IMG/VR virus record: IMGVR_UViG_3300023184_000136
Location: 1-59,633 of that record
Strand: one strand, 5' to 3'
Source of the DNA: a virus
Lineage: Duplodnaviria > Caudoviricetes
DNA: 59,633 nucleotides
Part shown: positions 3,231-54,118 of the stretch, piece after piece
Layout: each line of letters opens with the position of its first letter
Numbering within the stretch: the first letter of the stretch is position 1
Program-made: the position numbers and the translations under genes
The notes under the pieces: generated by a model
What the model was told of the DNA's origin: nothing
Database searches by the model: none
What the model saw: only the letters and a program-made list of their open reading frames with translations

Positions 3231-3233
3231 GTT

Positions 3234-19881: not shown

Positions 19882-20706
19882 ATGGAATTAAATAAAATAT
19901 ACAACGAAGACTGTCTAATAACTCTATCTAACGTACCTGATAATACTATTGACCTAACTGTAACATCACCTCCCTACGATGATTTAAGAACGTATAATAA
20001 TCATATCTCAGGTATTAAAACTGAATTTAATGGATACTCTTTTGACTTTGAAAAAATTGCAAGAGAATTGTATAGAACAACTAAAGAAGGAGGAGTAGTT
20101 GTATGGGTTGTTGGAGACGGAACAGAGAAAGGAAGTGAAACAGGAACATCATTCAAACAAGCATTATTCTTCAAAGAGATTGGATTTAATATTCATGACA
20201 CAATGATTTACATGAAGAATAATTTTTCAAATCCATCTTCAAATAGATACCATCAAATTTTTGAATACATGTTTGTTTTATCTAAGGGTAAACCAAAGAC
20301 ATTCAATTCAATTAAAGATAGAAAGAATGTTTATGGTGGTCAGGTTGGTAGTTGGGGTAAGAATACTTCTCGACAAGTGGATGGAACGATGGTAGAAAGA
20401 AAGAAAAAAATCATTGAAGAGTACGGTCAAAGATATAATGTATGGACATTTAAGACATCTAAGAACGGTCAGGAGGATGAAATAGCTTATCAACACCCTG
20501 CAATATTCCCAATTCAGTTGGTTAAGGACCATATAATGAGTTGGTCAAACCCTGGTGATTTAATTTTTGACCCGTTTATGGGTAGTGGGACAACGGCAAA
20601 AGCTGCAGTTCAAACTGAAAGGTCTTACTTGGGTAGTGAACTTTCTGAGGAGTACTATGGTATTTGTTTAAAAAGATTAGAAACGATTCAAAAAGAATTA
20701 AGATAA
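19882..20706 (+). CDS. DNA amino-methyltransferase, beta class (N4-C/N6-A)
   Basis: TSPPY precedes HPAIFP and DPFMGSGTT. Confidence 0.92.
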   Translation: MELNKIYNEDCLITLSNVPDNTIDLTVTSPPYDDLRTYNNHISGIKTEFNGYSFDFEKIARELYRTTKEGGVVVWVVGDGTEKGSETGTSFKQALFFKEIGFNIHDTMIYMKNNFSNPSSNRYHQIFEYMFVLSKGKPKTFNSIKDRKNVYGGQVGSWGKNTSRQVDGTMVERKKKIIEEYGQRYNVWTFKTSKNGQEDEIAYQHPAIFPIQLVKDHIMSWSNPGDLIFDPFMGSGTTAKAAVQTERSYLGSELSEEYYGICLKRLETIQKELR

Positions 20707-23041: not shown

Positions 23042-23839
23042 ATGAGAGAAAAAGCAGTAATACCAATTAACCAAGACGAGATTGCAAGTTATTTAAAAGA
23101 CATTCGAAAGTTAACTGTAATGACGGTTGAAAGAGAACGTGAACTTGCAGATAGAATGTTATCGGGAAACATTACCGATGAAGAAAAGGCGGAGATAAAG
23201 AAGGAGATACTTGAAGGTAACCTTCGTTTCGTTATCACCGTGAGTAAACAATATCAAAACCAAGGGTTGGACTTCCCTGATTTGATTGCCGAAGGAAACT
23301 ATGGTTTGTTGAAAGCCATCGAGAACTTTGATTGGTCCAAGAAATTAAGATTTATATCTTATGCCGTTTGGTGGGTTCGTCAATCCATCCTGCAATCTCT
23401 TAATGAGAATGCAAGAACCATTCGTCTTCCCGTGAATGTGGTACAAGAGTTACAGAAAGCTAAGAAAGAGTTAGATAGAGAGGGTGTTGAATTACCTGAT
23501 AAGTTTGTTAACCTACCTTATACTGTTAACTTGGATTCACCTTTAAATGAAGATGGAGACACTTTGATGGACGTATTGAATAATCCTAACGCTGAGTGGG
23601 CTGATTCCAACTTGACTACTGAACAGACTTTGAAAGATAAGTTATTGGGTATGTTGGATGTATTGGATGAGAGAGAAAGAATTATCGTGGAGGATTATTT
23701 TGGACTATCTGGCTCAACAAGAACCTTGGAAGATATAGGTAATGACTTCGACTTAACGAAGGAAAGGGTACGACAGATTAAGGAAAAAGCTCTCAGAAAA
23801 CTGAGAAATGAGACGGGTTCTCTGTTCGATTATATGTAA
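23042..23839 (+). CDS. rpoD: RNA polymerase sigma70 factor (Bacteroidetes RpoD-like)
   Basis: NLRFVITVSKQYQNQG, DLIAEGN, RFISYAVWWVRQSI, region 4 LTKERVRQIKEKAL. Confidence 0.93.
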   Translation: MREKAVIPINQDEIASYLKDIRKLTVMTVERERELADRMLSGNITDEEKAEIKKEILEGNLRFVITVSKQYQNQGLDFPDLIAEGNYGLLKAIENFDWSKKLRFISYAVWWVRQSILQSLNENARTIRLPVNVVQELQKAKKELDREGVELPDKFVNLPYTVNLDSPLNEDGDTLMDVLNNPNAEWADSNLTTEQTLKDKLLGMLDVLDERERIIVEDYFGLSGSTRTLEDIGNDFDLTKERVRQIKEKALRKLRNETGSLFDYM

Positions 23840-31782: not shown

Positions 31783-32709
31783 ATGAAAGATTATTACAAA
31801 ATACTGGAAGTTGAAGAGCAATCGTCAGAAGATGACATAAAAAAAAGTTATCGAAACCTTTCAAAAAAGTATCATCCTGATGTAAACCCTGGTGGTGAAG
31901 AGATGTTTAAAGACATTGCCGAGGCGTATGAAGTGTTAGGTAATAAAGACAAACGTGCACAGTATAATAACCGAAAGAGTAATCCCTACGGTGGAACACC
32001 ATTTGAAGATTTATTCACTCAAATGTTTAACCAACGAAATCAGCAACAGCAACAACATTTCAGAAGAAAGTCTGCTCCTGACAAAGTTATAAAGGTTCAG
32101 ATATCACCTATAGAGTCTTATAAGGCTTCAGTCAAAACCGTTAACTATTTTAGAGAACAAGGGTGTAGTGTTTGTAAAGGAACTGGTGGTGATACTAATA
32201 CTTGTGGTACTTGTGGAGGAGCGGGATTCCAACTAAAAACATTTGGAACAGGATTTATGGTTCAACAAGTAAGAACTGCATGTCCTTCTTGTAATGGTAG
32301 AGGAAGCATAATCATCAACAAATGTCATCACTGTTCAGGTAAAGGTACCAAGACGGCAACACAAGAGATTAGAGTGAACATTCCATATGGTGCCGATGAC
32401 GGTCAGTTCCTTAAGTTACAAAATTTGGGTGACTTCAGTAACGGTGAGTACGGAGACTTAGTTTTACAAATAGAAATGACTCCGACAGACGGATATGAAA
32501 AAATGAATAATGATTTAATTTATAATCTATATTTGAACTTAGAACAATTACAACAAGATAAGTTTAACATTCCACATCCAGATGCAGACCTTATGATGTC
32601 TGCGCCAGCAACGTTCGATACCTCCAAACCATTAAGATTAAGAGGTAAAGGATATAGCGGTGGAGATATGTATGTAAAACTTCATGTGAAGTTTGAGAGA
32701 ACTACTTAA
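31783..32709 (+). CDS. dnaJ: DnaJ chaperone
   Basis: J-domain with HPD, four CxxCxGxG repeats and a C-terminal domain. Confidence 0.93.
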   Translation: MKDYYKILEVEEQSSEDDIKKSYRNLSKKYHPDVNPGGEEMFKDIAEAYEVLGNKDKRAQYNNRKSNPYGGTPFEDLFTQMFNQRNQQQQQHFRRKSAPDKVIKVQISPIESYKASVKTVNYFREQGCSVCKGTGGDTNTCGTCGGAGFQLKTFGTGFMVQQVRTACPSCNGRGSIIINKCHHCSGKGTKTATQEIRVNIPYGADDGQFLKLQNLGDFSNGEYGDLVLQIEMTPTDGYEKMNNDLIYNLYLNLEQLQQDKFNIPHPDADLMMSAPATFDTSKPLRLRGKGYSGGDMYVKLHVKFERTT

Positions 32710-33071: not shown

Positions 33072-33911
33072 ATGTTAAGTTATATCGGAGGTAAATCAAA
33101 AATTGGGAAATGGATAGTTCCATTATACCCACAAGACATGGAAACATATGTAGAAACATTCGGAGGAATGTTTTGGTGTTTCTTTAATATGGATTTGAGT
33201 CAATACCCAAATCTTAAGAAAGTTGTGTACAACGACTTCAACCCATTAAATTATAATTTGTTTCGGTGTGTTCAAAATCCAACTGAACTAAAAAGAGCAA
33301 TGGACGCAATTCCTGTTCAACAAGTTGGGGTTACTGTCACTCCTCCTGAAATGAAGGAACAATTTGTTGCATTCCAAAAAGAATTGTTTGGTAGTGGTTT
33401 TACAATAAACTACCCTGACTATGAGGTAGCCGCCAAATACGCGTACGTCCTCACACAGGTCTTTTCAGGTAGTAAGCCTGAGACATCTTCATTTATAGAT
33501 TTAAAAGGGAACTACAAGTCTAAATTCATCACATTTAGGGATAAATTATCAAAACCTGCATGGATTACACATTTTGATAAAATAACTCATGTTGAAAATT
33601 TAGATTTTGAAGATGTTATTAGAAAATATGATTCACCAACAACTTACATTTATTTAGACCCTCCATATTGGAAGACCGAGAATTATTATAATAATCATGA
33701 TTTTGACCGTGAAGACCACGAAAGACTGGCAAATGTTCTTAGTGGAGTTCAGGGTAAATTTAGTTTATCATATTACGATTTTCCGTTATTACATGATTGG
33801 TTTCCTGAGAATCAGTATAGGTGGGAACGTAAACAATTTGCTAAAGCGGCTGCTGCGAAAAAAAATGTCAAACAAAATATGGCTGAAGAGCTGTTGATAT
33901 TGAATTATTAG
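33072..33911 (+). CDS. Dam/D12-class DNA adenine methyltransferase
   Basis: YIGGKS, YVETFGG, VYND, YLDPPY. Confidence 0.9.
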   Translation: MLSYIGGKSKIGKWIVPLYPQDMETYVETFGGMFWCFFNMDLSQYPNLKKVVYNDFNPLNYNLFRCVQNPTELKRAMDAIPVQQVGVTVTPPEMKEQFVAFQKELFGSGFTINYPDYEVAAKYAYVLTQVFSGSKPETSSFIDLKGNYKSKFITFRDKLSKPAWITHFDKITHVENLDFEDVIRKYDSPTTYIYLDPPYWKTENYYNNHDFDREDHERLANVLSGVQGKFSLSYYDFPLLHDWFPENQYRWERKQFAKAAAAKKNVKQNMAEELLILNY

Positions 33912-35661: not shown

Positions 35662-37302
35662 GTGAAAGAAGAAATCTACAAGAAAAGTTTTGAGAGGTAC
35701 AGTACCACAAAGTATAAAGACTATAATAGTATTGTGCCAATAGATGGACATAATCCTGAATTTATTTTTGGTGCAACCGAAAAACATCCTGCATTCCAAA
35801 AAGAAGAATCTTGGGAAGAGGAAGAGTATTATATGAAACATTTGAAAGACCCTATGTATTCAGTTCGCAAAGAGTATACGATGATTGTGGTTGAAAAGAA
35901 TGGGGATAAGGTTAGTATAAAATTTTTTACGGGAATGATGTCTAGACGAGAGGGAAAACCTTGGTTTAAAGTAGAAAAAAATGTTGATTACATTTCAGTA
36001 AATTTAAAAACAGGGGATGTTTATAATGGGCATTTAAGAGGGTTTAATAAGAAAAAGAAATGTATTAAGAATGTAAGAAGGAATTGTTTCTTTTTGGAAC
36101 CAGCGAATAGTATTAAGTCTAAAATGAAAAATTATTTAACTCTTTTTACTAATACTGCATTTAATGAAGTTACAACCGCATTCTCGGAGTTTTTATTTCA
36201 AATTGACCAAAGGGAAAACTTTGAAAATTTGAATTATGAAGATAGACTATTTAGGTTTTATCTTAACAAAAGAGGAATCAAATATCCTAACAACTTTAAA
36301 GTTTATACAGGTGAACTGAGAGGACCTGAAATAAAAAAGATATTGAAGAAAAACGACAATAAGCTAGTCGAATCAATTATGATTAGACATAATCTTTCAG
36401 GTAAGAAAGTAAGACATGCTTTACATTTTTGTAATAAGTTAAATCTACCTTTATATGAAGTCGCAAGAAAATTATTTGGAGATGATTGGTTGAACCAAGA
36501 TAAAGAAAGTATTATATTGGATTTGTTAAATCAACCATCTTCTTTTATAAATGTACCGGCTCAGTTTACTGAATTGATTTCAAAAGAGGAGTTGAAAAAA
36601 GTTTACACACTTTTCAAACAAGTTTTCATACATGAAAATTTAGATTCAACGACCTTCGGCGACCACATAAGAATGTATGTTGAATTAAAATCATTCGGGG
36701 AACATGATTTGAAGTGGAAGTCAGTTGAAAGTAAACCTGATTTTCGTAAAGAACATTTGGATTGGACAGAGAAACTCCAACATTATAAAATGGGTAATTA
36801 CACAAGACATTATCCTGAGTATATGTATGAAATGATATCTCAACCTTCACATGCCGATTTTCATCAAGTACTTTTGGATACAAGTTCAAACTATAATGAT
36901 GAGAGTAGTTATCAGTCCAACTGTGTTAAAGGATATATTGGAAAACCAAGTTGTTTAATTATTTCTGTAAGGTATGGGAAATTTTTAGAAGAAAGGGCAA
37001 CGATTGAATATAAGTTAACTATGAACAACGGAGTAGTATATGCTGATAGAGTTCAAAGTTTGGGTAAGTTCAATCAAAAATTGGAAGATTCATGGACTAC
37101 AGTTCTATTGAAATTGGATAAACAAGTATTATCTTGTGTTAGAGACAAACGATTTGAAACTGTTAAAATAACCAAAGAGTGTAAGAACGGAGCAATTCTC
37201 AAATCTGATACTTATTGGGATAAAGAGGGTAGTCTTCGATGGACATTTAAAAACATTGACTCACAAGAATCGATTTTCCACTTTAACCTTCCATTATTAT
37301 GA
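35662..37302 (+). CDS. PcfJ-like domain protein
   Basis: C-terminal ESSYQSNCVKGY...IISVR...RATIEY...VQSLGKFN; GTG start after TATATTTG (35650). Confidence 0.72.
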   Translation: MKEEIYKKSFERYSTTKYKDYNSIVPIDGHNPEFIFGATEKHPAFQKEESWEEEEYYMKHLKDPMYSVRKEYTMIVVEKNGDKVSIKFFTGMMSRREGKPWFKVEKNVDYISVNLKTGDVYNGHLRGFNKKKKCIKNVRRNCFFLEPANSIKSKMKNYLTLFTNTAFNEVTTAFSEFLFQIDQRENFENLNYEDRLFRFYLNKRGIKYPNNFKVYTGELRGPEIKKILKKNDNKLVESIMIRHNLSGKKVRHALHFCNKLNLPLYEVARKLFGDDWLNQDKESIILDLLNQPSSFINVPAQFTELISKEELKKVYTLFKQVFIHENLDSTTFGDHIRMYVELKSFGEHDLKWKSVESKPDFRKEHLDWTEKLQHYKMGNYTRHYPEYMYEMISQPSHADFHQVLLDTSSNYNDESSYQSNCVKGYIGKPSCLIISVRYGKFLEERATIEYKLTMNNGVVYADRVQSLGKFNQKLEDSWTTVLLKLDKQVLSCVRDKRFETVKITKECKNGAILKSDTYWDKEGSLRWTFKNIDSQESIFHFNLPLL

Positions 37303-37649
37303 AACCAGAATACATACAAAATTTAGAATCAAAAGATGGCATCTTTTCAATAATGGGTTGTTATGAATTGAAAGGAGAATTCTTAAAATACTTAAGTGAA
37401 AAAAAACTATCGAGAGTATATGAAAAGGGATTAATGAATGAAAGTAATCAGGTAAAATTTGGGGAAGTAATTTTTAAAAGCCAACAAAACTTTTATTTAT
37501 TTGTTCAAATCCGAGTGATTCCACAGTCAGACACAATTTCAAATTTAACTATTTATTATAAAGCGGAACAATACAACGAATTGTATTTGTTCTTATCACA
37601 ATTATTAAAACAATATAAAAATGCAACAACTAACAACAGAACAACTTAA
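37299..37649 (+). CDS. hypothetical protein
   Basis: 116-aa ORF. Confidence 0.65.
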   Translation: MKPEYIQNLESKDGIFSIMGCYELKGEFLKYLSEKKLSRVYEKGLMNESNQVKFGEVIFKSQQNFYLFVQIRVIPQSDTISNLTIYYKAEQYNELYLFLSQLLKQYKNATTNNRTT

Positions 37650-37944
37650 ACAAAAAATGGCTAACGGTGAGGACTTCATACTAGATTTATTTGCAGTATG
37701 GTGTGGACCTTGTAAGGTTATGTTATCTAACTTAGAAAAAGTGAATGAATCTTTAATTAAAGAATCAACAGAACCTAGATACGGGATTTATAAGTACGAT
37801 ATTGATTCAGACAGAGATTTCGTAATTGAAACCTTAGGTATAAGAAGTGTACCAACAATAAAAATATTTAAGGAAGGCAAGGAAGTATTCTCTCAAGCGG
37901 GAGTAATGTCTCCAACCCAAGTACTTAGTTTAATCGAAGACTAA
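37621..37944 (+). CDS. thioredoxin
   Basis: WCGPC and GIRSVPT motifs. Confidence 0.9.
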   Translation: MQQLTTEQLKQKMANGEDFILDLFAVWCGPCKVMLSNLEKVNESLIKESTEPRYGIYKYDIDSDRDFVIETLGIRSVPTIKIFKEGKEVFSQAGVMSPTQVLSLIED

Positions 37945-38246
37945 TGAAAGATTTATCAGTAGTAGTTTATACAATGCAAGGATGTCCATTCTGTCAGGAC
38001 TTTAAAGATATGCTACAGAAAGAAGGTATTGAATTTTTTGATAGAGATATCGATAAGTACAAACAAGAGTATGATATCTTCAGTGAAATTACAAAGAATG
38101 ATATGATACCAGCTCTTCTAATCATCGAAGGAGACGATAAATCTCATGAGTCATTCTTATATGCTCCTGATAGAGACTATGACGAACTAACAGAGGCGTT
38201 AACCATTGTTAATGAACACAGGAAGAAGGTGGGGATTATTAAATAA
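37944..38246 (+). CDS. glutaredoxin-like protein
   Basis: VYTMQGCPFC, MIPA. Confidence 0.85.
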   Translation: MKDLSVVVYTMQGCPFCQDFKDMLQKEGIEFFDRDIDKYKQEYDIFSEITKNDMIPALLIIEGDDKSHESFLYAPDRDYDELTEALTIVNEHRKKVGIIK

Positions 38247-38928
38247 TAATAAAATCTTTAACCTTTTCTTTTAAGAAAGGATATTCATCAAGTGGATTAG
38301 TTACTTCAACATAACAATCCACTTTTTTTATTTCATTACTAATTGCCGAAGTGTCAAAATCAAAGACATCCAATATAGATGACCTCAAGTTTTCATCATA
38401 GTCTTCAGTATGAATATTATACACCTTAAAATCAGACTCTAACTTTTCTTTGTCCGTCGGAACTTCAAACCTTAATCCTGAGAATGGATAGTTTGATGGT
38501 ATGTTATACACAATATGTTTTGTGTAGTAATATAATAATCGACCTTGATTAAGGGAATAACCGTGAGGAAACTCTGAAACAACAATTAATTCAGAATCAT
38601 CATCAAATACCTCCTCGTTGGTGGGGTATGAACAATTATCGTTATTGAATAAAGTGAATTTATAATCTTTTTTAGATACAAATTTTTTATTGTATTCAAT
38701 CAAATCAATGGTATTCAATGATTTAAAAGAAAATTTTTCACAAAATTCATCTGACAATTTTGAAATATCTAAAGGGATGTTATAAGATGTGAGTCCTTTA
38801 ATAACATAAAAATTATTACAATCTGCAATTTGTATTATTGAATCTTCATCAGAAGGAATACTTTTAAGTATGTAATCGGCAAATAAATTTATTATAGATA
38901 TTTTACTTTTAGGTGACTTTAAATTCAT
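38239..38928 (-). CDS. degenerate S-adenosylmethionine synthetase (MetK)-like protein
   Basis: FADYILK...VIKGLTS...LDI, GRLLYYYTKHIVYNI and ILDVFDFDTSAI parallel MetK segments ISDAILD..GEIT..VDI, DRSAAYAARYVAKNIV and FFDLRPYGI. Catalytic motifs are absent. Confidence 0.5.
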   Translation of the reverse strand: MNLKSPKSKISIINLFADYILKSIPSDEDSIIQIADCNNFYVIKGLTSYNIPLDISKLSDEFCEKFSFKSLNTIDLIEYNKKFVSKKDYKFTLFNNDNCSYPTNEEVFDDDSELIVVSEFPHGYSLNQGRLLYYYTKHIVYNIPSNYPFSGLRFEVPTDKEKLESDFKVYNIHTEDYDENLRSSILDVFDFDTSAISNEIKKVDCYVEVTNPLDEYPFLKEKVKDFIII

Positions 38929-39018
38929 AAAAAAAGAATTAAATTTTAATAATCCTAATACTAATAAAAATTATCTGAAAGTTGTAGTATTCTTTTTTAC
39001 AATAATAAACTTTCGTTG

Positions 39019-39026
39019 TATTTATA
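39019..39026 (+). promoter_or_regulatory. TATTTATA putative late promoter of the collagen-fibre operon
   Basis: 19 nt upstream of ATG 39046. Confidence 0.5.
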
Positions 39027-39045
39027 GGATAACAAAACAGTTTGG

Positions 39046-42012
39046 ATGGCAAATATTATAATTTATCCCAGTAACGCAATTTCAAGACAACCTGGGAGGA
39101 TACCAAAAATAGATTTTTCAAATACCGCAACTATTACTTTACAAGTAATATCTGGGGCTACTATCCAATTTGGAACCAATGCTTTGGTGGTAAATCCAAC
39201 TCTTGGTGCAGTTTCTGCAACAACAATAAATGTTAAAGATTATTATGCTGTCACAGGAGTTCAAGTAATTAATGGTACAAGTTCATGGATTGGACCATCA
39301 ACAAACGTTTTAGGTAATACAGGAGCTCAAGGTAATACAGGAGCTCAAGGCTCAACAGGAGGAGGAGGTTCAGCAGGTGCTCAAGGTAGTACAGGGGCAC
39401 AGGGTTCAACAGGGGCACAAGGTGCAACTGGTAATACAGGTGCTCAAGGTGCTACGGGGGCTCAAGGAGCGATAGGTAATACAGGAGCGATAGGTAATAC
39501 AGGAGCACAAGGTTCAACAGGTGCACAAGGTTCGACAGGTGCTCAGGGCCAAACAGGTAATACAGGTGCTCAAGGTGCTACGGGGGCTCAAGGAGCGATA
39601 GGTAATACAGGAGCAATAGGTAATACAGGAGCCCAAGGAGGAACAGGGGCACAAGGTAGTACAGGTGCTCAAGGCCAAACAGGTAACACAGGAGCCCAAG
39701 GGTCAGGAGGTGCAACAGGAGCCCAAGGTAACACAGGAGCAATAGGTAATACAGGAGCTCAAGGAGCTGGTGGCGGAACAGGAAATACAGGAGCTCAAGG
39801 AGCGACAGGAAATACGGGTGCTCAGGGTTCAGGTGGTGGAACAGGAAATACAGGAGCTCAAGGTCAAACTGGAAATGCGGGAGCTCAGGGAGCGACAGGG
39901 AATGTAGGTACAACAGGACCTGGCGGTAATATAGGTAACACGGGAGCTCAAGGTTTAGGTGGTGGAACAGGAAATACAGGAGCTCAAGGTCAAACTGGAA
40001 ATGCGGGAGCTCAGGGAGCGACAGGGAATGTAGGTACAACAGGACCTGGAGGTAATACAGGAAATACAGGAGCTCAGGGTTCAGGAGGTGGGACAGGAAA
40101 TACAGGAGCTCAAGGGGCACAAGGAGGTGTATATGGTGTAGGCCAAGTATCATATCAAATATGGTCCGTCAATGCTGGTAATGGCAGTCTGTCTCAATAT
40201 GGTCAGTACCCTACTGATTCAACTGATTTTAACAAATGGTTTAATACCGCATATTCTAACTCAACTTTATACTCATCAGGTAATTCTACACCTGGAGTAA
40301 TTTGGGATTTTGTAGTTTGGACGACAATTACAAATGCTGGTATAACAATTCCAGCTACAGCGGGAGATTATATTGCGGTACAAACTTTTTCAACATTCAG
40401 ACCAACAGAAACTGGAACTTATACGTTTACCGCAGAATCAGACGATTCTTGCGACCTTTTTATTAACGGCACAAATGTTGCTAGTTTTTACGGTGGTAGA
40501 GGTACACCCGCATTAGGTACCACAGTGGGAACAATATCTTTAACCGCTGGAGTTAATTACTCAATGAGAGTAAGAATGCAGGAATATGCTGGTGGAGAGG
40601 GATTAAGAATATTTTGGAAAAAACCGTCTCAATCAACTGGAGGCACGTGGTATCAAAATACGGAGGAGGTTGGATTATCAGGCGCTCTTGGTCCAATAGG
40701 AGTTCAAGGAGCTCAGGGCCAAACAGGTCATCCAGGAGCTCAAGGGTCAGGAGGAGCAACGGGAGCTCAAGGTAATCCAGGTCAAACGGGTAATACAGGG
40801 GCTCAAGGAGCGGGAGGAAACGTAGGTACAACAGGACCTGGCGGTAATATAGGTAACACGGGAGCTCAAGGGTCAGGAGGAGCAACGGGAGCTCAAGGTA
40901 ATCCGGGTCAAACAGGACATCCAGGAGCTCAAGGAGCGTTAGGGGCAGGAGGACCACAAGGAGCTGGAGGAGCCACAGGAGCACAAGGTGCTCAAGGTGC
41001 TCAAGGTACTGTGGGACCACAAGGGGCACCAGGATTTCAAGGTAATAGAGGACCACAAGGACCGGGAGGACCAACAGGTGCTCAAGGTTCTCAAGGAGCT
41101 CCAGGATTTCAAGGAGGTGGAGGAGGACAAGGTTCTCAAGGAGCCACAGGACCAGGTGGTGGTACAGGACCTCAAGGTGCACAAGGAGCCACAGGACCAG
41201 GTGGTGGTACAGGACCTCAAGGTGCACAAGGTGCCGGTGGAAACGGAGGGCCAGGTGGTGGACAAGGTGCACAAGGTGCAGGTGGAAACGGAGGACCACA
41301 AGGAGCTCAAGGGTCTCAGGGTGGTTCAGGAAATAGTGGTGCTCAAGGAGCTCAAGGTCCAACAGGACCACAAGGAGCTCAAGGTCCAACAGGACCTCCT
41401 GGAATCAATTGTTATGGCGTTTATTTTTATCTAAATAATAACTGTTATTTTGCGTGTAATTATAATCAATATTATCTTTTAGGTTATCAACAATATTATA
41501 ATTATTTTGTATTTGCAACACCACACTATACAAGTTATACTAACTGTTTGAATACGAACTGTGATTTTGCTGGTCGTCAGTCAATTTACGGTAGTTATAT
41601 GAGTAATTTAATAGAATGTTGGTATGTATTTCCAACCTGTGGTGATGGAGATACTCTACAATATTATTGTTCTTATTTTTCGGATGAAGCATTAAAGACA
41701 GGTATTAAAACGCTTAAGGATGCTCTCCCTAAGTTGTTAGAACTTGAGGCGGTTGAATATGATTGGAATCAAAATCTTGGTGCTGACAAATACGATTACT
41801 TTAAAAGAAGAGGTAAATTACATACCATTGGATTAATTGCTCAAGACGTTAGAAAATATTATCCCGAAGTTGTAGGTATGCATGAAGATGGGTATTATTT
41901 TGTTGAATACCACAAATTAAATGCTGTTTTAGTTGAAGCTATAAAATCACAACAAATATTTATAGAAGATATTAAAGATGAATTAAACTTACTTGAAACT
42001 CTAATAAATTAA
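39046..42012 (+). CDS. collagen-like tail fibre 1 with PA14 domain, Cys/Tyr-rich tip and peptidase S74 chaperone
   Basis: Two long (Gly-X-Y)n tracts; PA14 motifs GTYTF...SDD..DLFING and QEYAGGE; S74 SDEALK...GLIAQDV..YPEVV. Confidence 0.85.
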
Positions 42013-44093
42013 TGGCAAACGTACTCATATATCCTCAAGGGAAAGGTGGTAACACCAATCCACACGTTTTATTTGATGATGGAACTAATAAGCTTCAAAT
42101 AAATGTTACTAACGCATTGGTTTTTTCATCTACAACGGTGTCAAGTGGTGTAACTATTGGAACAGCAAGTATTATTGTTTCAGGGTCATCGACTGCGGGT
42201 TCTACTTATGTTGGTGCAACTCAAATGATTGATGCTACAGGTGTATGGGTAGGACCAACAACAGCAATTAAAGGACTCCAAGGAGCTCAAGGTGCTCAAG
42301 GTAATACAGGTGCACAAGGTAATACAGGAGCACAAGGTGCATCAACAGGTGCTCAAGGTAATACAGGTGCTCAAGGGGGTCAAGGTGCTCAGGGAGCTCA
42401 AGGGGCTGCAACGGGAGCTCAAGGTAATACAGGAGCACAAGGAGGACAAGGTGCTCAAGGTGCACAAGGAGCCGCAACAGGAGCTCAAGGTAATACAGGA
42501 GCTCAAGGAGGAACTGGTGCTCAGGGAGCTCAAGGAGCCGCAATAGGAGCTCAAGGTAATACAGGAGCACAAGGAGGACAAGGTGCTCAAGGTGCACAAG
42601 GAGCTGCAACAGGAGCCCAAGGTAATACAGGAGCCCAAGGAGGAACTGGTGCTCAGGGAGCTCAAGGAGCTGCAACAGGAGCCCAAGGAGCTATAGGTTC
42701 TCAAGGCGCTCAAGGTTCTCAAGGTGCTCAAGGAGCTTCAACAGGAGCCCAAGGTGCCCAAGGAGCTCAAGGAGGAACAGGAGCCCAAGGTGCTCAAGGA
42801 GCTTCAACAGGAGCCCAAGGAGCCCAAGGTGCTCAAGGAGGAACAGGAGCTCAAGGTGCTCAAGGAGCTTCAACAGGAGCTCAAGGAGCTCAAGGAACTT
42901 TAGGTTTCCAAGGAGCTCAAGGTGCTCAAGGAGCCGCAACAGGAGCCCAAGGTGCTCAAGGAGCTCAAGGAGGAACTGGTGCCCAAGGAGCTCAAGGAGC
43001 CGCAACAGGAGCCCAAGGTGCTCAAGGAGCATTAGGTTTCCAAGGAGCCCAAGGTGCTCAAGGAGCCAACACAGGAGCCCAAGGTGCTCAAGGTTCTCAA
43101 GGACCAACAGGAGCACAAGGAGCACAAGGAGCTTCAACAGGTGCACAAGGAGCACAAGGAGCTTTAGGTTTCCAAGGAGCCCAAGGTGCTCAAGGTGGTA
43201 ATACAGGAGCCCAAGGTGCTCAAGGTTCTCAAGGACCAACAGGGGCTCAGGGAGCTCAAGGGGCCAACACAGGGGCTCAAGGTGCTGCAGGAGCTGGAGG
43301 ACCGCAAGGGGCTCAAGGTACTGCGGGAAGTACGGGAGCACAAGGTTCTCAAGGAGCGGTAGGCGCTCAAGGGCCTCAAGGACCAGCAAGTGGAGTTGCA
43401 GGTGCCCCTGGACCAACAGGACCAACAGGTGCTCAAGGTTCCCAAGGACTACAAGGTGGAGGAGGTGCGACAGGAGCCCAAGGAGCCCAAGGTTCAGGTG
43501 GTGGTGGTGGTGGCCAAGGTTCTCAAGGTGCTCAAGGTTCAGGTGGTGGTGGTGGTGGCCAAGGTTCTCAAGGTGCTCAAGGTTCAGGTGGTGGAGGAGG
43601 AGCCACAGGTGCACAAGGTTCTCAAGGAGGAGGAGGAGGACAAGGTGCTCAAGGTCCGGTAGGTGCTGACGGTCCACAAGGAAATACAGGACCCCAAGGA
43701 GATACGGGTAATCAAGGCCATCAAGGTCTTGCAGGACCAGGAGGACCTTCGGATATAAGACTTAAAGATAATGTTGTTAGACTTGAAAATAATTTAGATG
43801 TAATTCAAAAACTTCAAGGTGTCCTTTTTGAATGGGATGACGATAGTGTTTATTTAAGAGGTAACAAAAGTCTTCAATCCCAAGCAGCATTTTCAGGTGA
43901 TTCATTTGGGTTTATTGCTCAGGAGATGGAAAAAGTTATACCTGGAGTTGTTGATACTAATAGAGATGGGTATAAATCTATTGAATATGGTCAACTTGTA
44001 AGTTTAGGGATTGGTTCAATACAAGAACAACAAAAAAGAATAGATTCGATATTAGAAAGAATAAACAAACTTAAAGAATTAGTAAGTGGCTGA
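42012..44093 (+). CDS. collagen-like tail fibre 2 with peptidase S74 chaperone
   Basis: GAQ collagen with periodic GAAT interruptions; SDIRLK...[11 protein letters not shown]. Confidence 0.85.
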
Positions 44094-46215
44094 AGATATA
44101 ATAATAACCCCAGCGTCGGGTAAAATAGACTTTTATGATTCTGCATCCACAGTTACAACATGGGTGATAGAAACAGGTACGCTTAAATTTAAAAGAGGCG
44201 CAACTACGTATCTTTCTATGGATAATACTTATCCAAACTTCAGAGTGACTTCTGCAGATTTAAGATTAATTACATCACTTACAAACAACTCAGGAAACTT
44301 GATAGATTCAACGGGTTGGTTAGGTACAAGATATACTCAAGGTGCTCAAGGTGCTCAAGGAGGACAAGGTGCTCAGGGAGCTCAAGGTGGAACTGGAGGA
44401 CAAGGAGCACAAGGTGCTCAAGGTTCTACAGGTGCTCAAGGCTCTACAGGTGCCCAAGGAGGACAAGGAGCACAAGGAGCTCAAGGAGCAACAGGAACGG
44501 CCGGAGCTCAAGGTTCACAAGGAGGACAAGGTGCTCAAGGTGCTCAAGGTTCAACAGGAGCCCAAGGTTCACAAGGAGCTCAAGGAGGACAAGGAGCACA
44601 AGGTGCTCAAGGGGCGACAGGAACGGCCGGAGCTCAAGGTTCACAAGGAGGACAAGGTGCTCAAGGAGCCCAAGGTTCGACAGGTGCTCAAGGAGCCCAA
44701 GGTGCTCAAGGAGGACAAGGCGCTCAAGGAGCTAAGGGAGGTCAGGGAGCCACAGGAGCTCAAGGTTCACAAGGAGGTCAAGGAGCTCAAGGAGCACAAG
44801 GTGGTGGTGGAGCCACAGGAGCCCAAGGTGCTCAAGGAGGTCAAGGAGCTCAAGGAGCGCAAGGTGGTGGTGGAGCCACAGGAGCCCAAGGTGCTCAAGG
44901 TGGACAAGGAGCTCAAGGAGCTCAAGGAACTAAAGGAGGTCAAGGAGCTCAAGGTTCACAAGGTGGACAAGGAGCTCAAGGAGCACAAGGTGGTGGTGGA
45001 GCCACAGGAGCCCAAGGTGCTCAAGGAGGACAAGGTGCTCAGGGAGCTCAGGGTGGAACTGGAGGACAAGGAGCTCAAGGTTCACAAGGAGGTCAAGGTT
45101 CACAAGGAGGAGCTGGAGGCGCTGGTGCTCAAGGTTCACAAGGAGGAACAGGAGCCCAAGGTGCTCAAGGTGGACAAGGAGCTCAAGGAGCTCAAGGAGC
45201 TCAAGGTTCACAAGGAGGTCAAGGTTCACAAGGAGGAGCTGGAGGTGCTGGTGCTCAAGGTTCACAAGGAGGAACAGGAGGACAAGGTTCTCAAGGTGCT
45301 CAAGGACCTAAGGGTGTTCAAGGAGCTCAAGGTTCACAAGGAGGTCAGGGAGCTCAAGGAGGAGCTGGAGGAGCCGGAGCTCAAGGTTCACAAGGAGGAA
45401 CAGGAGGCCAAGGAGCTCAAGGTGCTCAAGGTTCCCAAGGAGGTCAAGGAGCTCAAGGAGCGACTGCTGCAACCGGTGCTCAAGGTGCTCAAGGAGCTTC
45501 ACCAACAGGACCAACAGGACCAGGAGGTGCTCAAGGTTTCCAAGGAGGACCAGGAGGGCAAGGAGCTCAAGGGTCTCAAGGACCAACAGGACCAGGTGGA
45601 GGACAAGGTGCTCAAGGAGCTCAAGGACCAACAGGACCAGGAGGTGCAACAGGAAGTCAAGGTGCTCAAGGACCAGTAGGACCGGGGGGTGCAACAGGAA
45701 GTCAAGGTGCTCAAGGACCAGTAGGACCAGGTGGAGGTCAAGGTGCTCAAGGAGCTCAAGGACCAGGAGGACCGCAAGGACCAGGAGGTAATCAAGGAGC
45801 TCAAGGACTTCAAGGTGGTGCAGGTATTCAAGGAGCTCAAGGAGCCAAAGGACCTGTCGGAGACCAAGGACCAACAGGACCACCTTCGGATATAAGATTT
45901 AAAAAGAATATTAGAAATATAGAGACACCACTTACAAAATTATTAAAAATAAGAGGAGTTGAGTTTATTTGGAAAAGACCAAATGATGATGGTGATAATA
46001 CGGTTGACATAGGATTTATTGCGCAAGAAGTTGCGGAGATATTCCCTGAATTAGTTTATAGTGGTAATAACACAACGGATTTGAAAAAAGTTAAGTATCA
46101 CGAAATAGTTTCAATTTGTCTTGAGGCGATAAAAGAACAATTTGAAGAATTAGATGAAAGTGAGACTAGATTAGAATATTTTGAAAATAGAATAAAAGAA
46201 AAGGGGTTGATTTAA
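44086..46215 (+). CDS. collagen-like tail fibre 3 with peptidase S74 chaperone
   Basis: GAQ/GGQ collagen; SDIRFK...GFIAQEV.EIFPELV. Confidence 0.85.
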
Positions 46216-46227
46216 ACCCCTTCTTTA
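46195..46227. terminator. bidirectional terminator between convergent genes
   Basis: AAGGGGTT-gattta-AACCCCTT flanked by A and T runs. Confidence 0.55.
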
Positions 46228-47057
46228 TTTAATAACATTTCTATTTCGTCTTTTGTGTTGTATAACATTGTTAAGAATCTTGGCCACATTTTAGGATTAT
46301 GTTTCTTAACTAATTCGATGTAAGTTAAATAATAAGGTTCATCTTTCTTATCAATGAGTTCTGTGGTTTGTGGATAGTCAACTGAGATATCTCCAAGAAT
46401 TTTAGATATTTTATTATCTCCGATGTTTTCATCATTTAACCTATCTAAGATATCTAATGACAATTTGGAAAGCTTCTCATTTTTTCCAAAATAGTTTACA
46501 ATATTATTTAAAGACTTAAGGAGGAATTTTTTATTTTCTACATTTTTTAATCTATTAAATCTTCTTGAGAATTCACCAACCAAAGCTTCTAAGAATTCAT
46601 TTGTGATTGCTCTAAATTCAATTGGATGACCCCAATAATCTTTATCTGACTTTTCATTATATCTTGATTGATATTTGATATTCATTTTTGTAGACTGTGA
46701 TGGGTCTGTGGCGTGTAACATTTCGTGATAGATGGTTAAGAAAAGGTTTTTCTTGGAACCATACTTTTTTGGATTCAATTGAATTACCAAATCTAACGGG
46801 TCTCTTGAACCTTTTGGTCTTGTATCTAATTCACCGAAATGAGGATATCTTGGATTGATATAAATTTGAACTAAAGCATCTGAACCATCTGAAGTTTTAA
46901 ATTGTAGTTGGTCTACTTTTGTTTTCTTATCGTATTGTTTGTTTCTATTAGACCACAACTTATTAGTTAACTCTATCAACCTTGTATAGGTTTCAGGGTC
47001 AAATCTAAATCTCTTTTGTTCTGAGATAACTGTTTCTAATATATTAATAAACTTCAT
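46212..47057 (-). CDS. HExxH zincin-like metallopeptidase
   Basis: TIYHEMLHATD...YWGHPIEFRA. Confidence 0.65.
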   Translation of the reverse strand: MKFINILETVISEQKRFRFDPETYTRLIELTNKLWSNRNKQYDKKTKVDQLQFKTSDGSDALVQIYINPRYPHFGELDTRPKGSRDPLDLVIQLNPKKYGSKKNLFLTIYHEMLHATDPSQSTKMNIKYQSRYNEKSDKDYWGHPIEFRAITNEFLEALVGEFSRRFNRLKNVENKKFLLKSLNNIVNYFGKNEKLSKLSLDILDRLNDENIGDNKISKILGDISVDYPQTTELIDKKDEPYYLTYIELVKKHNPKMWPRFLTMLYNTKDEIEMLLNKEGV

Positions 47058-47845
47058 TAGTCTAAATCAGTACTCCAATCAATTTGGAGTTTTTTTGGTT
47101 TAATTTTGTCTGCGTATTGGTCAAAGACATTTTTAAAAGGAATTTGAGCTTGTTTGATATCTTTAATCCTTCTCATGTCATCACCAATACCTGTAGATAA
47201 ATATGATTGAATCTCATCATCTACAACTTTCTCAGCATATCCCATACCAGTTATCTTCTTGGCAACTTGATTTCTTACCGATTGATTCATGTTCTCGATG
47301 TTAGAGAATTGTTTGTTTCTGTAAGCTGGAGTTGAGAACCATAGACCGTGAGCAACCTCATGGAATATTAAAGATGGGTCATCACCTGTAGATTGGTCGA
47401 TACCAATTAAGTAATAGTTATCACCACCAACAATGGCTCTTACGGTATCAACAATGCTAAACATAATTAAATCGTAGAAGTTAAGGTCAGGAATCATAGA
47501 CATACAAGATTCAATTGAATCACAAGGTATGTTATAACCAGCCCAATCTTCGTGGTATGTGAAGATGTCGTTCTTTGTTTTCTCTTTGTAGAATTTTGTG
47601 TAGTCTTGCCACTTGAATCCTTTACCTCTGAAACTATCTGAATCAGATTCATAGAACTCTTGGTAACGCATAAAAACTCTAGCTCTTAACTTATCGTTCT
47701 TAATAACAACAGCAAATATCTTCGGGTACATCTCAAACAACTCAATCTGTGATAAAATTGATTTGATGTTTGGTGGTGGAGTTTTACGTGGAGTAAAACC
47801 TCTTTGTTCCCTTAATACTTTTAATATAAGTTTATCTTTACTCAT
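47057..47845 (-). CDS. HExxH zincin-like metallopeptidase
   Basis: LIFHEVAHGLW...DDEIQSY. Confidence 0.65.
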   Translation of the reverse strand: MSKDKLILKVLREQRGFTPRKTPPPNIKSILSQIELFEMYPKIFAVVIKNDKLRARVFMRYQEFYESDSDSFRGKGFKWQDYTKFYKEKTKNDIFTYHEDWAGYNIPCDSIESCMSMIPDLNFYDLIMFSIVDTVRAIVGGDNYYLIGIDQSTGDDPSLIFHEVAHGLWFSTPAYRNKQFSNIENMNQSVRNQVAKKITGMGYAEKVVDDEIQSYLSTGIGDDMRRIKDIKQAQIPFKNVFDQYADKIKPKKLQIDWSTDLD

Positions 47846-48843
47846 TAAATGTAATCTTTAAAATACTCATTAATATTTTTATCTACTTTACGACTATCAG
47901 GGTAATCAGGTGGGTTTACAGATAAACAATCTCTGTCTTCCGCCATTATAGCTATGAAACTACCGTGGTATTCTAAAGTCCCTGAATTACCATAACCTTT
48001 ATTATTGTTTAGGTAATCATTTATATCTGTCTCAAATGCAGTCAAAGGTAACTTATTATATTGAATTTCCGTATTCTTTTTATATGGGTGGGGTTTTGTT
48101 ATCCATTCACCTGGACCTATTACATAATCTTGTAATTCGTACCATATTGAACGATAAATATCATCCTCATACGCTGAGTTATAGGATGAACTATGTATCG
48201 AGTATAATTCACTTTTTAATTCATCTAATGGGCCGTTAAGTAGTTCATTCATACTCTCTTTATCATCAACTATTCGCTTAACATTTTCCATATTAACTTC
48301 GACATAGTCAGGATGACCTTGTTCTGATGCAATTAATTGTAGTTCGTCACTCAATCCTGTAACTTCTTGACCCTCTAAAATATTAACAATATATTCTTGT
48401 AATCTTTTATCATTTTCAGGTGTAAGTTCTTCAATAACGTCGCTATAAACATCATCGGTTGTGTTATAGTAAGGTTCCCAATCGCTTTCACCATTCAAAA
48501 CAGATTCGATAGTATCTCTATCAGGTCCATTTCTATCGTTTTTACAAAACAATCTTGCCAAATCACCTCTATCATTAAGTTCCAAATATGCTTTCCCATC
48601 TTCAATTACTACATCATTCAACAAAGTTTGAATCCATTTATAATAATTTTCTCTATCGTTTTCATACAACCAAAGAAGATATTCGTTTTGCCAATATCCA
48701 CCATTATCAGCATTGTTGGGGTCAATGTCTCCCATACGGCCTCGTTTCTTCAACATATTGAAGAATGTTTGGTAGTCATTGAAGTATTTCTCAACCTCTA
48801 AGTCGTTGTTATTAAATTTTTCTATAATGTCATCTATGTCCAT
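47845..48843 (-). CDS. highly acidic hypothetical protein
   Basis: D/E/N-rich; ATG 48843 lies 4 nt after TATTTATA on the minus strand (48848-48855). Confidence 0.75.
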   Translation of the reverse strand: MDIDDIIEKFNNNDLEVEKYFNDYQTFFNMLKKRGRMGDIDPNNADNGGYWQNEYLLWLYENDRENYYKWIQTLLNDVVIEDGKAYLELNDRGDLARLFCKNDRNGPDRDTIESVLNGESDWEPYYNTTDDVYSDVIEELTPENDKRLQEYIVNILEGQEVTGLSDELQLIASEQGHPDYVEVNMENVKRIVDDKESMNELLNGPLDELKSELYSIHSSSYNSAYEDDIYRSIWYELQDYVIGPGEWITKPHPYKKNTEIQYNKLPLTAFETDINDYLNNNKGYGNSGTLEYHGSFIAIMAEDRDCLSVNPPDYPDSRKVDKNINEYFKDYI

Positions 48844-48856
48844 TACATATAAATAC

Positions 48857-48884
48857 AAAAAAAGGGACATTTTATTGTCCCTCT
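48857..48884 (-). terminator. intrinsic terminator
   Basis: AGGGACA/TGTCCCT stem with a T-run on the minus strand. Confidence 0.6.
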
Positions 48885-52208: not shown

Positions 52209-52435
52209 TGGTACAAAATGAAATGGTAAATGGACCTGCTCATTATGGCGGGGTGGATAATCCATACGAAGTAATTAAAGTCTGCGAAGCTTGGGGATTA
52301 GATTTCGATGCGTATCTTTTCAACGTGGTTAAATATGTTGCAAGGGCTGGTAAGAAAGATGAAACAAAAGAACTTGAAGATTTGAAAAAGGCTGCATTTT
52401 ATTTAGACCGTAAAATTAAAAACTTAGAGAAATGA
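52208..52435 (+). CDS. DUF3310-family protein
   Basis: VNGPAHY, NVVKYVARAGKK, EDLKKAAFYL. Confidence 0.85.
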   Translation: MVQNEMVNGPAHYGGVDNPYEVIKVCEAWGLDFDAYLFNVVKYVARAGKKDETKELEDLKKAAFYLDRKIKNLEK

Positions 52436-52866
52436 TATATTGGTTAACAGGACAACCTGGTGCTGGTAAGACAACATTAGCCACTTGGATACAATCAAGT
52501 TTTCCCAATAAGTCTATGATTGTGGATGGGGACGACCTTCGTGAAATCTTTATTAACAAAGACTACAGCGAGGAAGGTAGACGTAAGAATATTGAGAAGG
52601 CTCAGATACTTGCCAAATTTTTACATCATAAAGGATATACTGTGATTGTATCTTTAGTATCACCTTTTAGGGACCAAAGAGAAGAATTCAAGGTAGAGAT
52701 GAAAGATGATTTAATAGAGGTATATGTACATACCCAAAATGTTAGAGGTAGAGAACAGTTTCACGTAAACTATGAAGAACCTTTAAGTCTCTTCATTGAT
52801 TGTGACACTACAGATAGTAGTGAGTATGCAACATTTTTAGAATTAAGAAGAAAATTAAAAATATAA
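52432..52866 (+). CDS. cysC: adenylylsulfate (APS) kinase
   Basis: WLTGQPGAGKTT, DGDDLR, SLVSPF...R, EVYV, YEEP. Confidence 0.85.
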   Translation: MIYWLTGQPGAGKTTLATWIQSSFPNKSMIVDGDDLREIFINKDYSEEGRRKNIEKAQILAKFLHHKGYTVIVSLVSPFRDQREEFKVEMKDDLIEVYVHTQNVRGREQFHVNYEEPLSLFIDCDTTDSSEYATFLELRRKLKI

Positions 52867-53267
52867 TGGAAAAAATTCACGTAGAAGGAGACCCGAAACT
52901 AAAGAATACTCAAGGTAAACAATATTCAATGTTTATCGGAAGATGGCAACCGTGGCATTCTGGTCACAAATGGTTAATTGACCAAAGATTAAAGGAAGGT
53001 AAAAATGTTTTGATTTGTATCAGAGATGTCAAACCTGATGAAAAAAACCCCTTTACCACTGAACAAGTTCATTCGAATATATTATTTGAATTGTTGGATT
53101 TAATTAGTGAAGGAAGAGTTGAAATTATCAAAATCCCTGACATCGAATCAGTAAACTTTGGTAGAGGAGTTGGTTATGATATTATTGAACATATACCACC
53201 AACAGAAATAAGTGAGATATCGGCAACTAAAATTAGAGAACAATTAAAACAAGAGGGAAAGTTATGA
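52866..53267 (+). CDS. HIGH-superfamily nucleotidyltransferase (NadM/cytidyltransferase-like)
   Basis: FIGRWQPWHSGH, KNPF, GRGVGY, ISATKIR. Confidence 0.8.
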   Translation: MEKIHVEGDPKLKNTQGKQYSMFIGRWQPWHSGHKWLIDQRLKEGKNVLICIRDVKPDEKNPFTTEQVHSNILFELLDLISEGRVEIIKIPDIESVNFGRGVGYDIIEHIPPTEISEISATKIREQLKQEGKL

Positions 53268-54118
53268 TAGAAGATTACATAGGGAAAGTTATTAATGGGG
53301 ATTGTATTGAAGTGATGGCGAAGATGCCAGAATCTTCTGTGGATTTAATTGTAACGTCACCACCTTATGGTGTTGGAATTGCTTACGACTCATTCAACGA
53401 CGACATTGAATTTGAACAATATAAATTATTCAGTGCTAGTTGGTTAAGAGAGGCTTATAGAGTGTTAAAAGATGACGGCAGAATTGCCTTAAACATTCCT
53501 TATGAAATTAACAGACAAGACAAAGGTGGAAGAATACTGATGGTGTCTGAACTTTGGCAAGTGATGAAGAGTATTGGTTACAAGTTTTATGGTATTGTGG
53601 ATTTAGAAGAAGATTCTCCACATAGAAGTAAGACTACTGCGTGGGGTTCATGGATGTCACCATCGGCACCTTATATCTATAACCCAAAAGAATGTGTGTT
53701 GTTGGCGTATAAAAAGACTCATATAAAAAAGATTAAGGGAGAACCTGAATGGGTTGGTGAGGTTATGGATATTGAACAGGAAGATGGGACAACAAAAAAG
53801 AAAACAATGTATCAAGATGAACATAAGAAAGAATTTATGGAGTTGGTATACGGACAGTGGGATTATTTTGCTGATACAAAACAAATGACTAAGGCAACAT
53901 TCTCAATGGATATTCCAATGAAAGCTATTAAAATTCTAACATACAGGAACGATATTGTTCTTGACCCATTTACAGGTTCTGGTACAAGTATTTGTGCCGC
54001 TGAGATTGGTGGACGTAGGTGGATAGGGATTGAATTAAGTGAGAATTATTCTAAGGTGGCGAAAGACAGAGTTCAACATTTTATTGATAAAAAGAAACAA
54101 ACTAAATTAGATTTATAA
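53264..54118 (+). CDS. DNA amino-methyltransferase, beta class
   Basis: TSPPY...ATFS...DPFTGSGTS. Confidence 0.9.
   Translation: MIEDYIGKVINGDCIEVMAKMPESSVDLIVTSPPYGVGIAYDSFNDDIEFEQYKLFSASWLREAYRVLKDDGRIALNIPYEINRQDKGGRILMVSELWQVMKSIGYKFYGIVDLEEDSPHRSKTTAWGSWMSPSAPYIYNPKECVLLAYKKTHIKKIKGEPEWVGEVMDIEQEDGTTKKKTMYQDEHKKEFMELVYGQWDYFADTKQMTKATFSMDIPMKAIKILTYRNDIVLDPFTGSGTSICAAEIGGRRWIGIELSENYSKVAKDRVQHFIDKKKQTKLDL

Follow-up and report, generated by a model that had tools for sequence, protein, structure and literature searches.

The P0001 locus

The virus record IMGVR_UViG_3300023184_000136 (IMG/VR; Caudoviricetes) contains a gene for a 229-residue protein, here called P0001, which has the predicted fold of S-adenosylmethionine (SAM) synthetase. 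This enzyme, MetK, is also known as methionine adenosyltransferase (MAT) and is among the most conserved enzymes of life. P0001 appears to be a cut-down relative of it. The whole record was analysed and is referred to below as the window; it is 59,633 bases long, has a G+C content of 35%, and carries the label 'freshwater metagenome'. CheckV gives it a completeness of 20%, which implies a full genome of about 300 kb.

The P0001 coding sequence occupies 38239..38928 on the minus strand. The list of open reading frames (ORFs) and the translation give 229 residues with the stop codon inside the span, exactly as in a first-pass annotation made from the sequence, which left the strand unsaid. A glutaredoxin gene (37944..38246, plus strand; Pfam Glutaredoxin, E = 2.5e-9) is convergent with the P0001 gene, and the 3' ends of the two share eight bases (38239-38246). 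A thioredoxin gene, recognised in the same Pfam scan, lies beside the glutaredoxin gene; together the two span 37621-38246. On the other side, an intergenic stretch of 117 bases (38929..39045) separates the P0001 gene from the first of three collagen-like tail-fibre genes (39046..46215, plus strand). These have S74 intramolecular-chaperone ends, and one has a PA14 domain. Since the two flanking genes diverge, the 117-base stretch must contain the P0001 gene's own promoter.

P0001 has a reduced MetK fold

The AlphaFold2 model of P0001, built on an alignment of the protein family (84 sequences), has a predicted local distance difference test (pLDDT) score of 95.9 and a predicted template-modelling (pTM) score of 0.91. 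A Foldseek search of the PDB with this model, a check that had been named beforehand, returned 124 chains at E <= 0.001. The best E-value was 2.5e-6, template-modelling (TM) scores by query length ranged from 0.30 to 0.61, and all 31 of the matches listed are MetK/MAT entries. VIA-align comparison with 48,161 representative chains gave Z >= 8 for only three, all of them MATs: 5h9u_C (Z 14.3, root-mean-square deviation 4.4, 224 of 229 residues aligned), 4le5_B (Z 12.9) and 7p82_A (Z 9.7). The next chain is unrelated and has a Z of 5.7. The MetK resemblance claimed in the first-pass annotation therefore holds at the level of the fold, and only MATs match strongly.

A longer member of the family, P0182 (270 residues, 29% identical to P0001), behaves in the same way. 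Its AlphaFold2 model has a pLDDT of 96.7 and aligns to the same three MATs with Z-scores of 16.4 (262 of 270 residues aligned), 16.2 and 10.1; the next, unrelated, chain has a Z of 4.9. These scores are above those of P0001, which makes the longer forms the more MetK-like, and such forms fit a progressive reduction of the modelled fold. P0001 shares the fold and the order of elements with MetK/MAT (EC 2.5.1.6; Pfam S-AdoMet_synt_N, _M and _C; PDB 5h9u, 4le5, 7p82, 7r3b). It differs in size: the E. coli enzyme has 384 residues in three lobes, and P0001 has 229 residues in two. P0001 has four main helices where MetK has six, and it consists of two alpha-beta-beta-alpha-beta units. Also unlike MetK, the P0001 family has no Pfam MetK domain at its cut-off and is found only in phage contigs. 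Going by the model, P0001 is almost certainly a MetK-derived fold.

Sequence comparison with MetK

Homology is argued chiefly from the predicted fold; at the sequence level the MetK C-terminal lobe is still faintly recognisable in the family. S-AdoMet_synt_C is the only Pfam family matched by more than two of the 84 relatives (8/84 at E <= 10, best E = 4.3e-5). When 38 of the 84 were re-scanned at E <= 0.05, three matched, scoring 23.9, 17.8 and 16.3 bits where the cut-off is 25. hhalign pairs P0001 residues 127-206 with E. coli MetK 270-348, with an E-value of 0.047 against the single sequence and 0.013 against an alignment of 27 MetK sequences, from which genomes G024 and G007 were left out. 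Here NQGRLLYYYTKHIVYNI is aligned with KVDRSAAYAARYVAKNI, and ILDVFDFD with VREFFDLR. The second-best alignment pairs residues 3-79 with MetK 10-78 (E = 0.4), and as far as sequence goes MetK 140-212 would be an equally good partner for the N-terminal half. Run in global mode, hhalign found no alignment of the two proteins. The VIA-align ranges begin at P0001 residues 1-2 and at residues 6-23 of the MAT chains; as these starts lie at the N-terminus of the MATs, the N-terminal half of P0001 is assigned to the first MetK repeat unit.

The first-pass annotation had described three segments of P0001 that follow MetK in order, and in this it was right. The second and third are recovered by the best hhalign alignment, with weak statistics. 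The first is collinear with MetK 10-78 as claimed, but only in the second-best alignment at E = 0.4.

Parts of the protein

The first lobe, of the form alpha-beta-beta-alpha-beta(-beta), comprises residues 1-94 (38647..38928, minus strand) and corresponds to the first MetK repeat unit, the 'central' domain. In the AlphaFold2 model its elements are H9-21, E30-36, E41-47, H55-66, E73-78 and E88-94. It is followed by a short variable linker, residues 95-117 (38578..38646, minus strand), which falls in a region of gaps and insertions in the alignment. These 23 residues stand in place of about 170 residues of MetK, roughly 100-260, which form the lobe called the N-terminal domain together with flanking strands. 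The linker is longer in relatives, which reach 277 residues; the extra linker residues of P0182 form strands (E123-128, E132-136 and E147-149) that also superpose on MAT.

Residues 118-130 (38539..38577, minus strand), SEFPHGYSLNQGR, are the most conserved motif of the family and lie at the position of the MetK phosphate loop, GGGAFSGKD..KVDR. Within the motif S118 is kept in 99% of relatives, F120 in 94%, P121 in 100%, G123 in 99% and S125 in 90%; R130 is R in 86% and K in 13%, one or the other in 99%. The second lobe, residues 131-229 (38242..38538, minus strand), corresponds to the MetK C-terminal domain according to hhalign and the sub-threshold S-AdoMet_synt_C matches of relatives.

Loss of SAM-synthesis residues

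MetK residue numbers follow the translated E. coli gene, with which they were compared. According to PMC3853416, the key residues of E. coli MAT include His14 (catalytic), Glu55*, Gln98*, Ile102*, Asp163, Arg229, Phe230 and Asp238, and archaeal MATs keep the key residues although their identity is only about 10%. P0001 has not kept them. In the low-confidence alignment (E = 0.4), His14 falls on S8, Asp16 on I10, Glu42 on Q33 and Glu55 on L46, and no conserved histidine occurs in the first 20 residues of the family across the 84 sequences. Asp163, Lys165, Arg229, Phe230, Asp238 and Lys245 belong to the stretch of MetK that P0001 lacks. When the hhalign anchor is extended without gaps, Lys265 falls on G123, Lys269 on N127 and Asp271 on G129; in the gapped alignment these three MetK residues stand opposite a gap. 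Asp16, Glu42, Lys165, Lys245, Lys265, Lys269 and Asp271 also have functional roles in MetK. Residues that are kept from MetK are Phe262 (F120), Arg272 (R130), Tyr276 (Y134) and Asn284-Ile285 (N142-I143).

The catalytic motifs GHPDK, GAGDQG and GGGAFSGKD, read from E. coli MetK, have no counterpart in P0001, which bears out the earlier view of a protein far shorter than MetK that has lost its catalytic motifs. As every SAM-synthesis residue that could be mapped is lost, the term pseudo-enzyme is justified with respect to SAM synthesis. Judged from the model and the alignments, P0001 very probably does not synthesise SAM.

Searches for S-AdoMet_synt_N, _M and _C at E <= 1 covered the window and four related virus records, among them a complete one of 309,177 bases, and found no such domain. 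The idea of a split MetK, in which another gene would encode the missing lobe, was considered and rejected, as this sequence-only search found no MetK domain in the window or the four records. By sequence, the phage appears to have no MetK of its own and nothing to supply the missing lobe.

Predicted homodimer

Two copies of P0001 folded together with the family alignment gave values of the interface score ipSAE of 0.56, 0.58 and 0.57; three controls gave 0.00-0.01. Of proteins solved as one-chain pairs, 20 of 30 reach the mark for this score, as does one of 23 solved as single chains; these counts hold only roughly here, as the dimer was run on our own alignment. Contacts agree between runs to at least 97%, and the partner pLDDT is at least 89.

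The model predicts a symmetric interface on the sheet, made up of residues 31, 33-35, 37-39, 42, 44-46, 76, 111-117, 124 and 128. Q33 and L46, which align with the MetK interface residues Glu42 and Glu55, are inside it, and this supports a MetK-like stacking. Several positions are consistently hydrophobic in relatives (34 and 42 in 100%, 76 in 98%, 37 in 89%). Positions 33, 35, 44, 46 and 112-117 vary in identity; for example, position 33 is Q, E, K or S, position 35 is T, V, A or I, and position 44 is K or N. A face that is hydrophobic yet variable in identity fits self-pairing better than docking on the near-invariant face of MetK. The loop 118-130 directly follows the strand 111-117 and, in the dimer model, contacts the partner through Y124 and Q128. 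With the loop beside the interface, the best-kept residues would lie where MetK has its active sites, as judged from the contact lists. P0001 is thus predicted to pair sheet-to-sheet like MetK, and on the strength of the models it is likely that it forms a homodimer through this sheet face.

Family, distribution and constraint

In a collection of 5.8 billion proteins, 464 relatives of P0001 were found at E <= 0.01 among 596 candidates. The 120 relatives listed are unnamed or called hypothetical, except for one whose source label is 'cupredoxin-like copper-binding protein'. An exhaustive HMMER search gave 181 clusters at 50% identity, 123 of them at E <= 1e-10; lengths in the best 150 of the 181 range from 49 to 277 residues, and none of these is MetK-sized. 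The only BFVD structure at E <= 0.001 is A0A6J5L9B3 from an uncultured Caudovirales phage (E = 6.1e-9, 25% identity, TM 0.60/0.66). It evidently belongs to the same family as P0001; it is shorter (208 residues) and is an uncharacterized protein with no annotation or study.

Other searches yielded little. P0001 gave only noise against Pfam (no match at E <= 10), PHROGs, NCBIfam and PDB sequences, and the family profile gave no match to PDB sequences at E <= 10. A tblastn search of 50,697 deposited phage records with P0001 found nothing at E <= 1, a megablast search with window positions 36000-41000 found nothing, and the ESM Atlas gave no usable match to P0001. Among 185,579 species, each represented by one genome, there is one match, on a 2,570-base contig of a metagenome-assembled genome (MAG) labelled Aquiluna. 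The G+C content of this contig is 41.9%, against 50.5% at the metK locus of the same MAG; the contig is probably mis-binned. So far the family is limited to one lineage of uncultured freshwater jumbo phages with genomes of about 300 kb.

Only G45 and P121 are invariant in the 84-sequence alignment. Near-invariant positions are N14, I32, F40, T47, F62, D75, I77, Y79, S118, F120, G123, S125, Y135, S183 and D187. The ratio dN/dS is 0.08-0.15 in all ten orthologue pairs compared (10/10); the P0001 gene is under strong purifying selection.

Gene neighbourhood

Forty related viral loci were collected with P0110, a protein 55% identical to P0001, as the query. An independent search with a glutaredoxin alignment gave 76 loci, many of which share contigs with the 40, and a search with a 561-residue neighbour protein gave three. 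Contigs of related loci reach 309-326 kb. The P0001-family gene is tail-to-tail with a glutaredoxin gene at 40/40 loci, and in the glutaredoxin search it directly adjoins in 76/76. A distant branch (27% identity) has an identical gene order at both of its loci (2/2). The constant neighbours of the family are the thioredoxin and glutaredoxin genes. Within an uncultured jumbo-phage lineage the P0001 gene has the pattern of a core gene, not that of a sporadic accessory gene.

The other flank is variable. It holds a same-strand homologue of the window gene at 46212..47057 in 11/40 loci, a homologue of the window gene at 47845..48870 in 20/40, and an extra unmatched ORF in between in 1/40. In the remaining 8/40, as in the window, opposite-strand tail-fibre genes lie there. 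In 32/40 loci the fibre cassette is absent from this position and the flanking genes abut directly; as fibre genes occur there at only eight of the 40, the cassette is a variable insertion.

Two side observations concern these loci. The glutaredoxin is unusually conserved across the lineage (79% mean column identity in 14 sequences). One locus of the 76, L127 (an IMG/VR contig, 3796-4455), is the only one that covers just profile positions 1-180 and may be a truncated or frameshifted copy.

Upstream signals

A sigma-70-like consensus scan upstream of the P0001 gene found seven sites, against 8.8 expected in shuffled sequences. The string TATTTATAG occurs on the plus strand at 39019-39027, 41957-41965 and 3223-3231, and similar strings lie just upstream of 4158 and 54182. 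Motifs like TATTTATAGGATA are found 15-50 bases upstream of two tail-fibre genes and near other plus-strand genes. The exact 9-mer count of three is not above chance, being reached in 16 of 100 shuffles; the motif may be a late-promoter or leader element of the phage. A T4-like late promoter (TATAAATA) for the P0001 gene was considered and rejected, as the motif at 39019-39027 has further copies on the plus strand, just upstream of plus-strand genes. Given this recurrence and a count that does not exceed chance, the motif is assigned to the fibre gene. The P0001 gene has no TATTTATAGGATA-like motif of the kind seen ahead of the fibre genes and of the SprB-repeat protein gene (4158-6143).

At four related loci (L011, L016, L027 and L029) a GC-rich hairpin followed by a T run was seen by eye about 50-90 bases upstream of the P0001-family gene, in the gap that separates it from the preceding gene. 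Several other loci share an AT-rich, promoter-like string, seen likewise by eye, in which TTCGTTTT is followed after about 15 bases by TAYTATAAT and which the upstream region of the window matches poorly. With the upstream hairpin and T run and the promoter-like motif, the P0001-family gene looks like its own transcription unit.

Proposed function of P0001

In our preferred reading, P0001 descends from MetK but retains only two of that enzyme's three lobes and none of its SAM-forming chemistry. Two copies are predicted to stack their beta-sheet faces as a symmetric, MetK-like dimer. The loop S118-x-F-P-x-G-Y-S...G-R130, at the position of the MetK phosphate loop and bordering the predicted interface, may together with N14, D18, D75, Y79, S183 and D187 form a remodelled cleft, which would bind a small ligand or a partner peptide. 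P0001 would then have no catalytic role but would bind or regulate in the service of the phage's own programme, and would not poison host SAM synthesis. As a whole, this picture of a self-pairing, non-catalytic MetK descendant with a binding cleft has a chance only a little short of even. We tentatively favour a non-catalytic binder or regulator over the rival readings, on the basis of the models, with a chance somewhat below even.

Several points weigh against this reading. The hhalign probability is only 1-3% with E-values of 0.013-0.047, so that the sequence-profile statistics by themselves are not significant. The residue mapping of the N-terminal half comes from an alignment with E = 0.4 and lacks a residue-level superposition. 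The homodimer was predicted with one program, which may have passed it because solved MetK dimers were already known to it. Proline and glycine are frequent in the conserved loop, whose role could be structural only. A protein that docks onto the highly conserved host MetK would likewise be expected to show purifying selection and to behave as a core gene. Finally, a function in binding a ligand or partner is something that we infer from the model.

That P0001 could be a minimal, still working SAM synthetase is suggested by its MetK fold and predicted MetK-like dimer. It is extremely improbable: P0001 lacks one third of the fold, it has nothing that corresponds to the catalytic histidine, to the residues that stack on adenine and bind ribose, or to the phosphate-loop lysines, and archaeal MATs at about 10% identity retain their key residues (PMC3853416). 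An active enzyme with a new chemistry on the MetK scaffold, acting on a nucleoside, a nucleotide or a sulfonium compound, would explain the strong constraint and the concentration of the most conserved residues at the MetK active-site loop, next to the predicted interface. However, invariance is limited to G45 and P121, none of the mapped metal and phosphate ligands remains, and the few near-invariant polar residues are mostly Ser, Thr, Tyr, Asn and Asp, with no conserved His or Lys and with R130 as the sole conserved basic residue; we regard such an enzyme as improbable. A virion or scaffold protein that reuses a stable MetK-derived fold with no link to small molecules fits a core-like, syntenic jumbo-phage gene that adjoins tail-fibre genes in the window and at 8/40 related loci, and whose own-strand neighbours have no known family. 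Yet that fibre cassette is a variable insertion, missing from the position in 32/40 loci, and the constant neighbours encode thioredoxin and glutaredoxin. The gene also lacks the motif found upstream of the fibre and SprB-repeat genes, and conservation is concentrated in one loop instead of being spread over surfaces. A structural or assembly role is therefore rather unlikely.

The first-pass annotation had proposed that the protein co-assembles with host MetK to poison or redirect it. The sheet face of P0001 would pair with a host MetK subunit and cripple or re-tune the two-subunit active sites; SAM supply would be lowered or redirected and SAM-dependent defences weakened. The model keeps the MetK pairing face with conserved hydrophobic positions, strong purifying selection fits a very conserved target, and the complete 309-kb relative has no canonical MetK domain, so that an infected cell would have no full MetK other than the host's. 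There is also a precedent for a MetK-binding phage protein in PDB entry 8bb1, 'T3 SAM lyase in complex with S-adenosylmethionine synthase', and in the preprint 10.1101/2023.02.27.530186. Against this stand the variable identity of predicted face residues (33, 35, 44 and 112-117), the predicted pairing of P0001 with itself, the absence of one of the face's three lobes, and the SAM-dependent DNA methyltransferases kept by the lineage, for which SAM starvation would hurt the phage. The gene is moreover syntenic, core-like and under strong purifying selection, not a sporadic accessory gene, which leans against a poison. Pairing with host MetK is unlikely, if somewhat less so than a structural role. 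A more specific form of this idea is that a virus-encoded, dead, truncated MetK paralogue swaps into the host MetK dimer and re-tunes SAM synthesis, either as a brake or in the manner of a 'prozyme'; this is about as doubtful as a structural role.

Comparison with known systems

T3 SAM lyase (SAMase) is reported to cleave SAM and also to bind and inhibit MetK. Its sole likeness to P0001 is a possible theme, namely a phage protein that acts on host SAM supply through MetK. The two proteins appear to be unrelated; the chain of 8bb1 that matches the P0001 model is the MetK chain A. The listed fold matches include no SAM lyase chain, and P0001 also has no PHROG or Pfam match. A further difference is that the phage encoding P0001 carries SAM-dependent DNA methyltransferases.

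The 'prozyme' of trypanosomatid S-adenosylmethionine decarboxylase (AdoMetDC) is, like P0001, a dead relative of an enzyme of SAM metabolism (PMC6221367). The parent enzyme of P0001 is oligomeric with shared active sites, and by analogy with the 'prozyme', pairing with a live enzyme is conceivable. In contrast, the 'prozyme' is a cellular paralogue shown to heterodimerise with its enzyme and activate it, whereas P0001 is viral, strongly truncated and predicted to pair with itself.

In the literature searched, the titles and opening lines of abstracts mention no truncated or catalytically dead relative of MetK. At the same level, the literature on phage and MetK, which gave the work on T3 SAM lyase, mentions no MetK-fold phage protein. 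The P0001 family is a new, reduced pseudo-enzyme branch of the MetK fold. It implies that the MetK fold can lose one of its three lobes and nevertheless remain under strong selection, and it gives a fold and a name to several hundred 'hypothetical proteins' of freshwater viromes. P0001 itself is a compact, confidently modelled protein with which the MetK scaffold can be probed without its chemistry. If P0001 touches host MetK or SAM-related ligands, large phages would have a new route of control over methyl-donor supply and SAM-dependent defences. Should the dimer swap be true, P0001 would be the first known MetK pseudo-enzyme and a new form of phage control of that supply.

Other features of the window and the host

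Three DNA methyltransferase genes are present (19882..20706, 33072..33911 and 53264..54118), two of the N6_N4 class and one of the D12/Dam class. Their homologues are the best-conserved neighbourhood genes in relatives (72-80% identity); the Dam-class methyltransferase is the best conserved of all, with 73-80% identity even in the distant branch.

Beyond the fibre cassette, three minus-strand genes (46212..47057, 47057-47842 and 47845..48870) encode proteins of 280, 261 and about 340 residues that have no Pfam, PHROG or NCBIfam match. Two of the three, in the region 46212-48870, are the conserved upstream neighbours in relatives. The product of the first matches only unnamed viral clusters in the ESM Atlas. 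A PDB profile search with the family of the third (341 residues) gave only E >= 0.08; the same family, about 340 residues long, has many invariant acidic and aromatic residues.

The host is hinted at by two features. GGAG or GAGG occurs at -20 to -4 in 5 of the 59 genes of the window, against a background of 11%, and by this count translation starts in the phage are not Shine-Dalgarno-led. Bacteroidota rarely use Shine-Dalgarno motifs. The SprB-repeat protein and the lack of Shine-Dalgarno use together hint at a Bacteroidota host. Among deposited phages, the closest are huge uncultured phages and a Microcystis phage; they are very distant, with 22-28% identity in an SbcC-like protein.

At 52432-53267 the window has an adenosine 5'-phosphosulfate (APS)-kinase-like P-loop gene followed by a cytidylyltransferase-like gene; these match the two halves of the PHROG 'kinase' family phrog_10255. 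The phage also encodes a sigma-70-family factor (23042-23839), a full DnaJ with J, zinc-finger and C-terminal domains (31783-32709), and a tRNA-Met (58459-58531). The first ORF (2-2569) is open at the 5' end of the record, and the DNA starts with a C/A-rich repetitive stretch.

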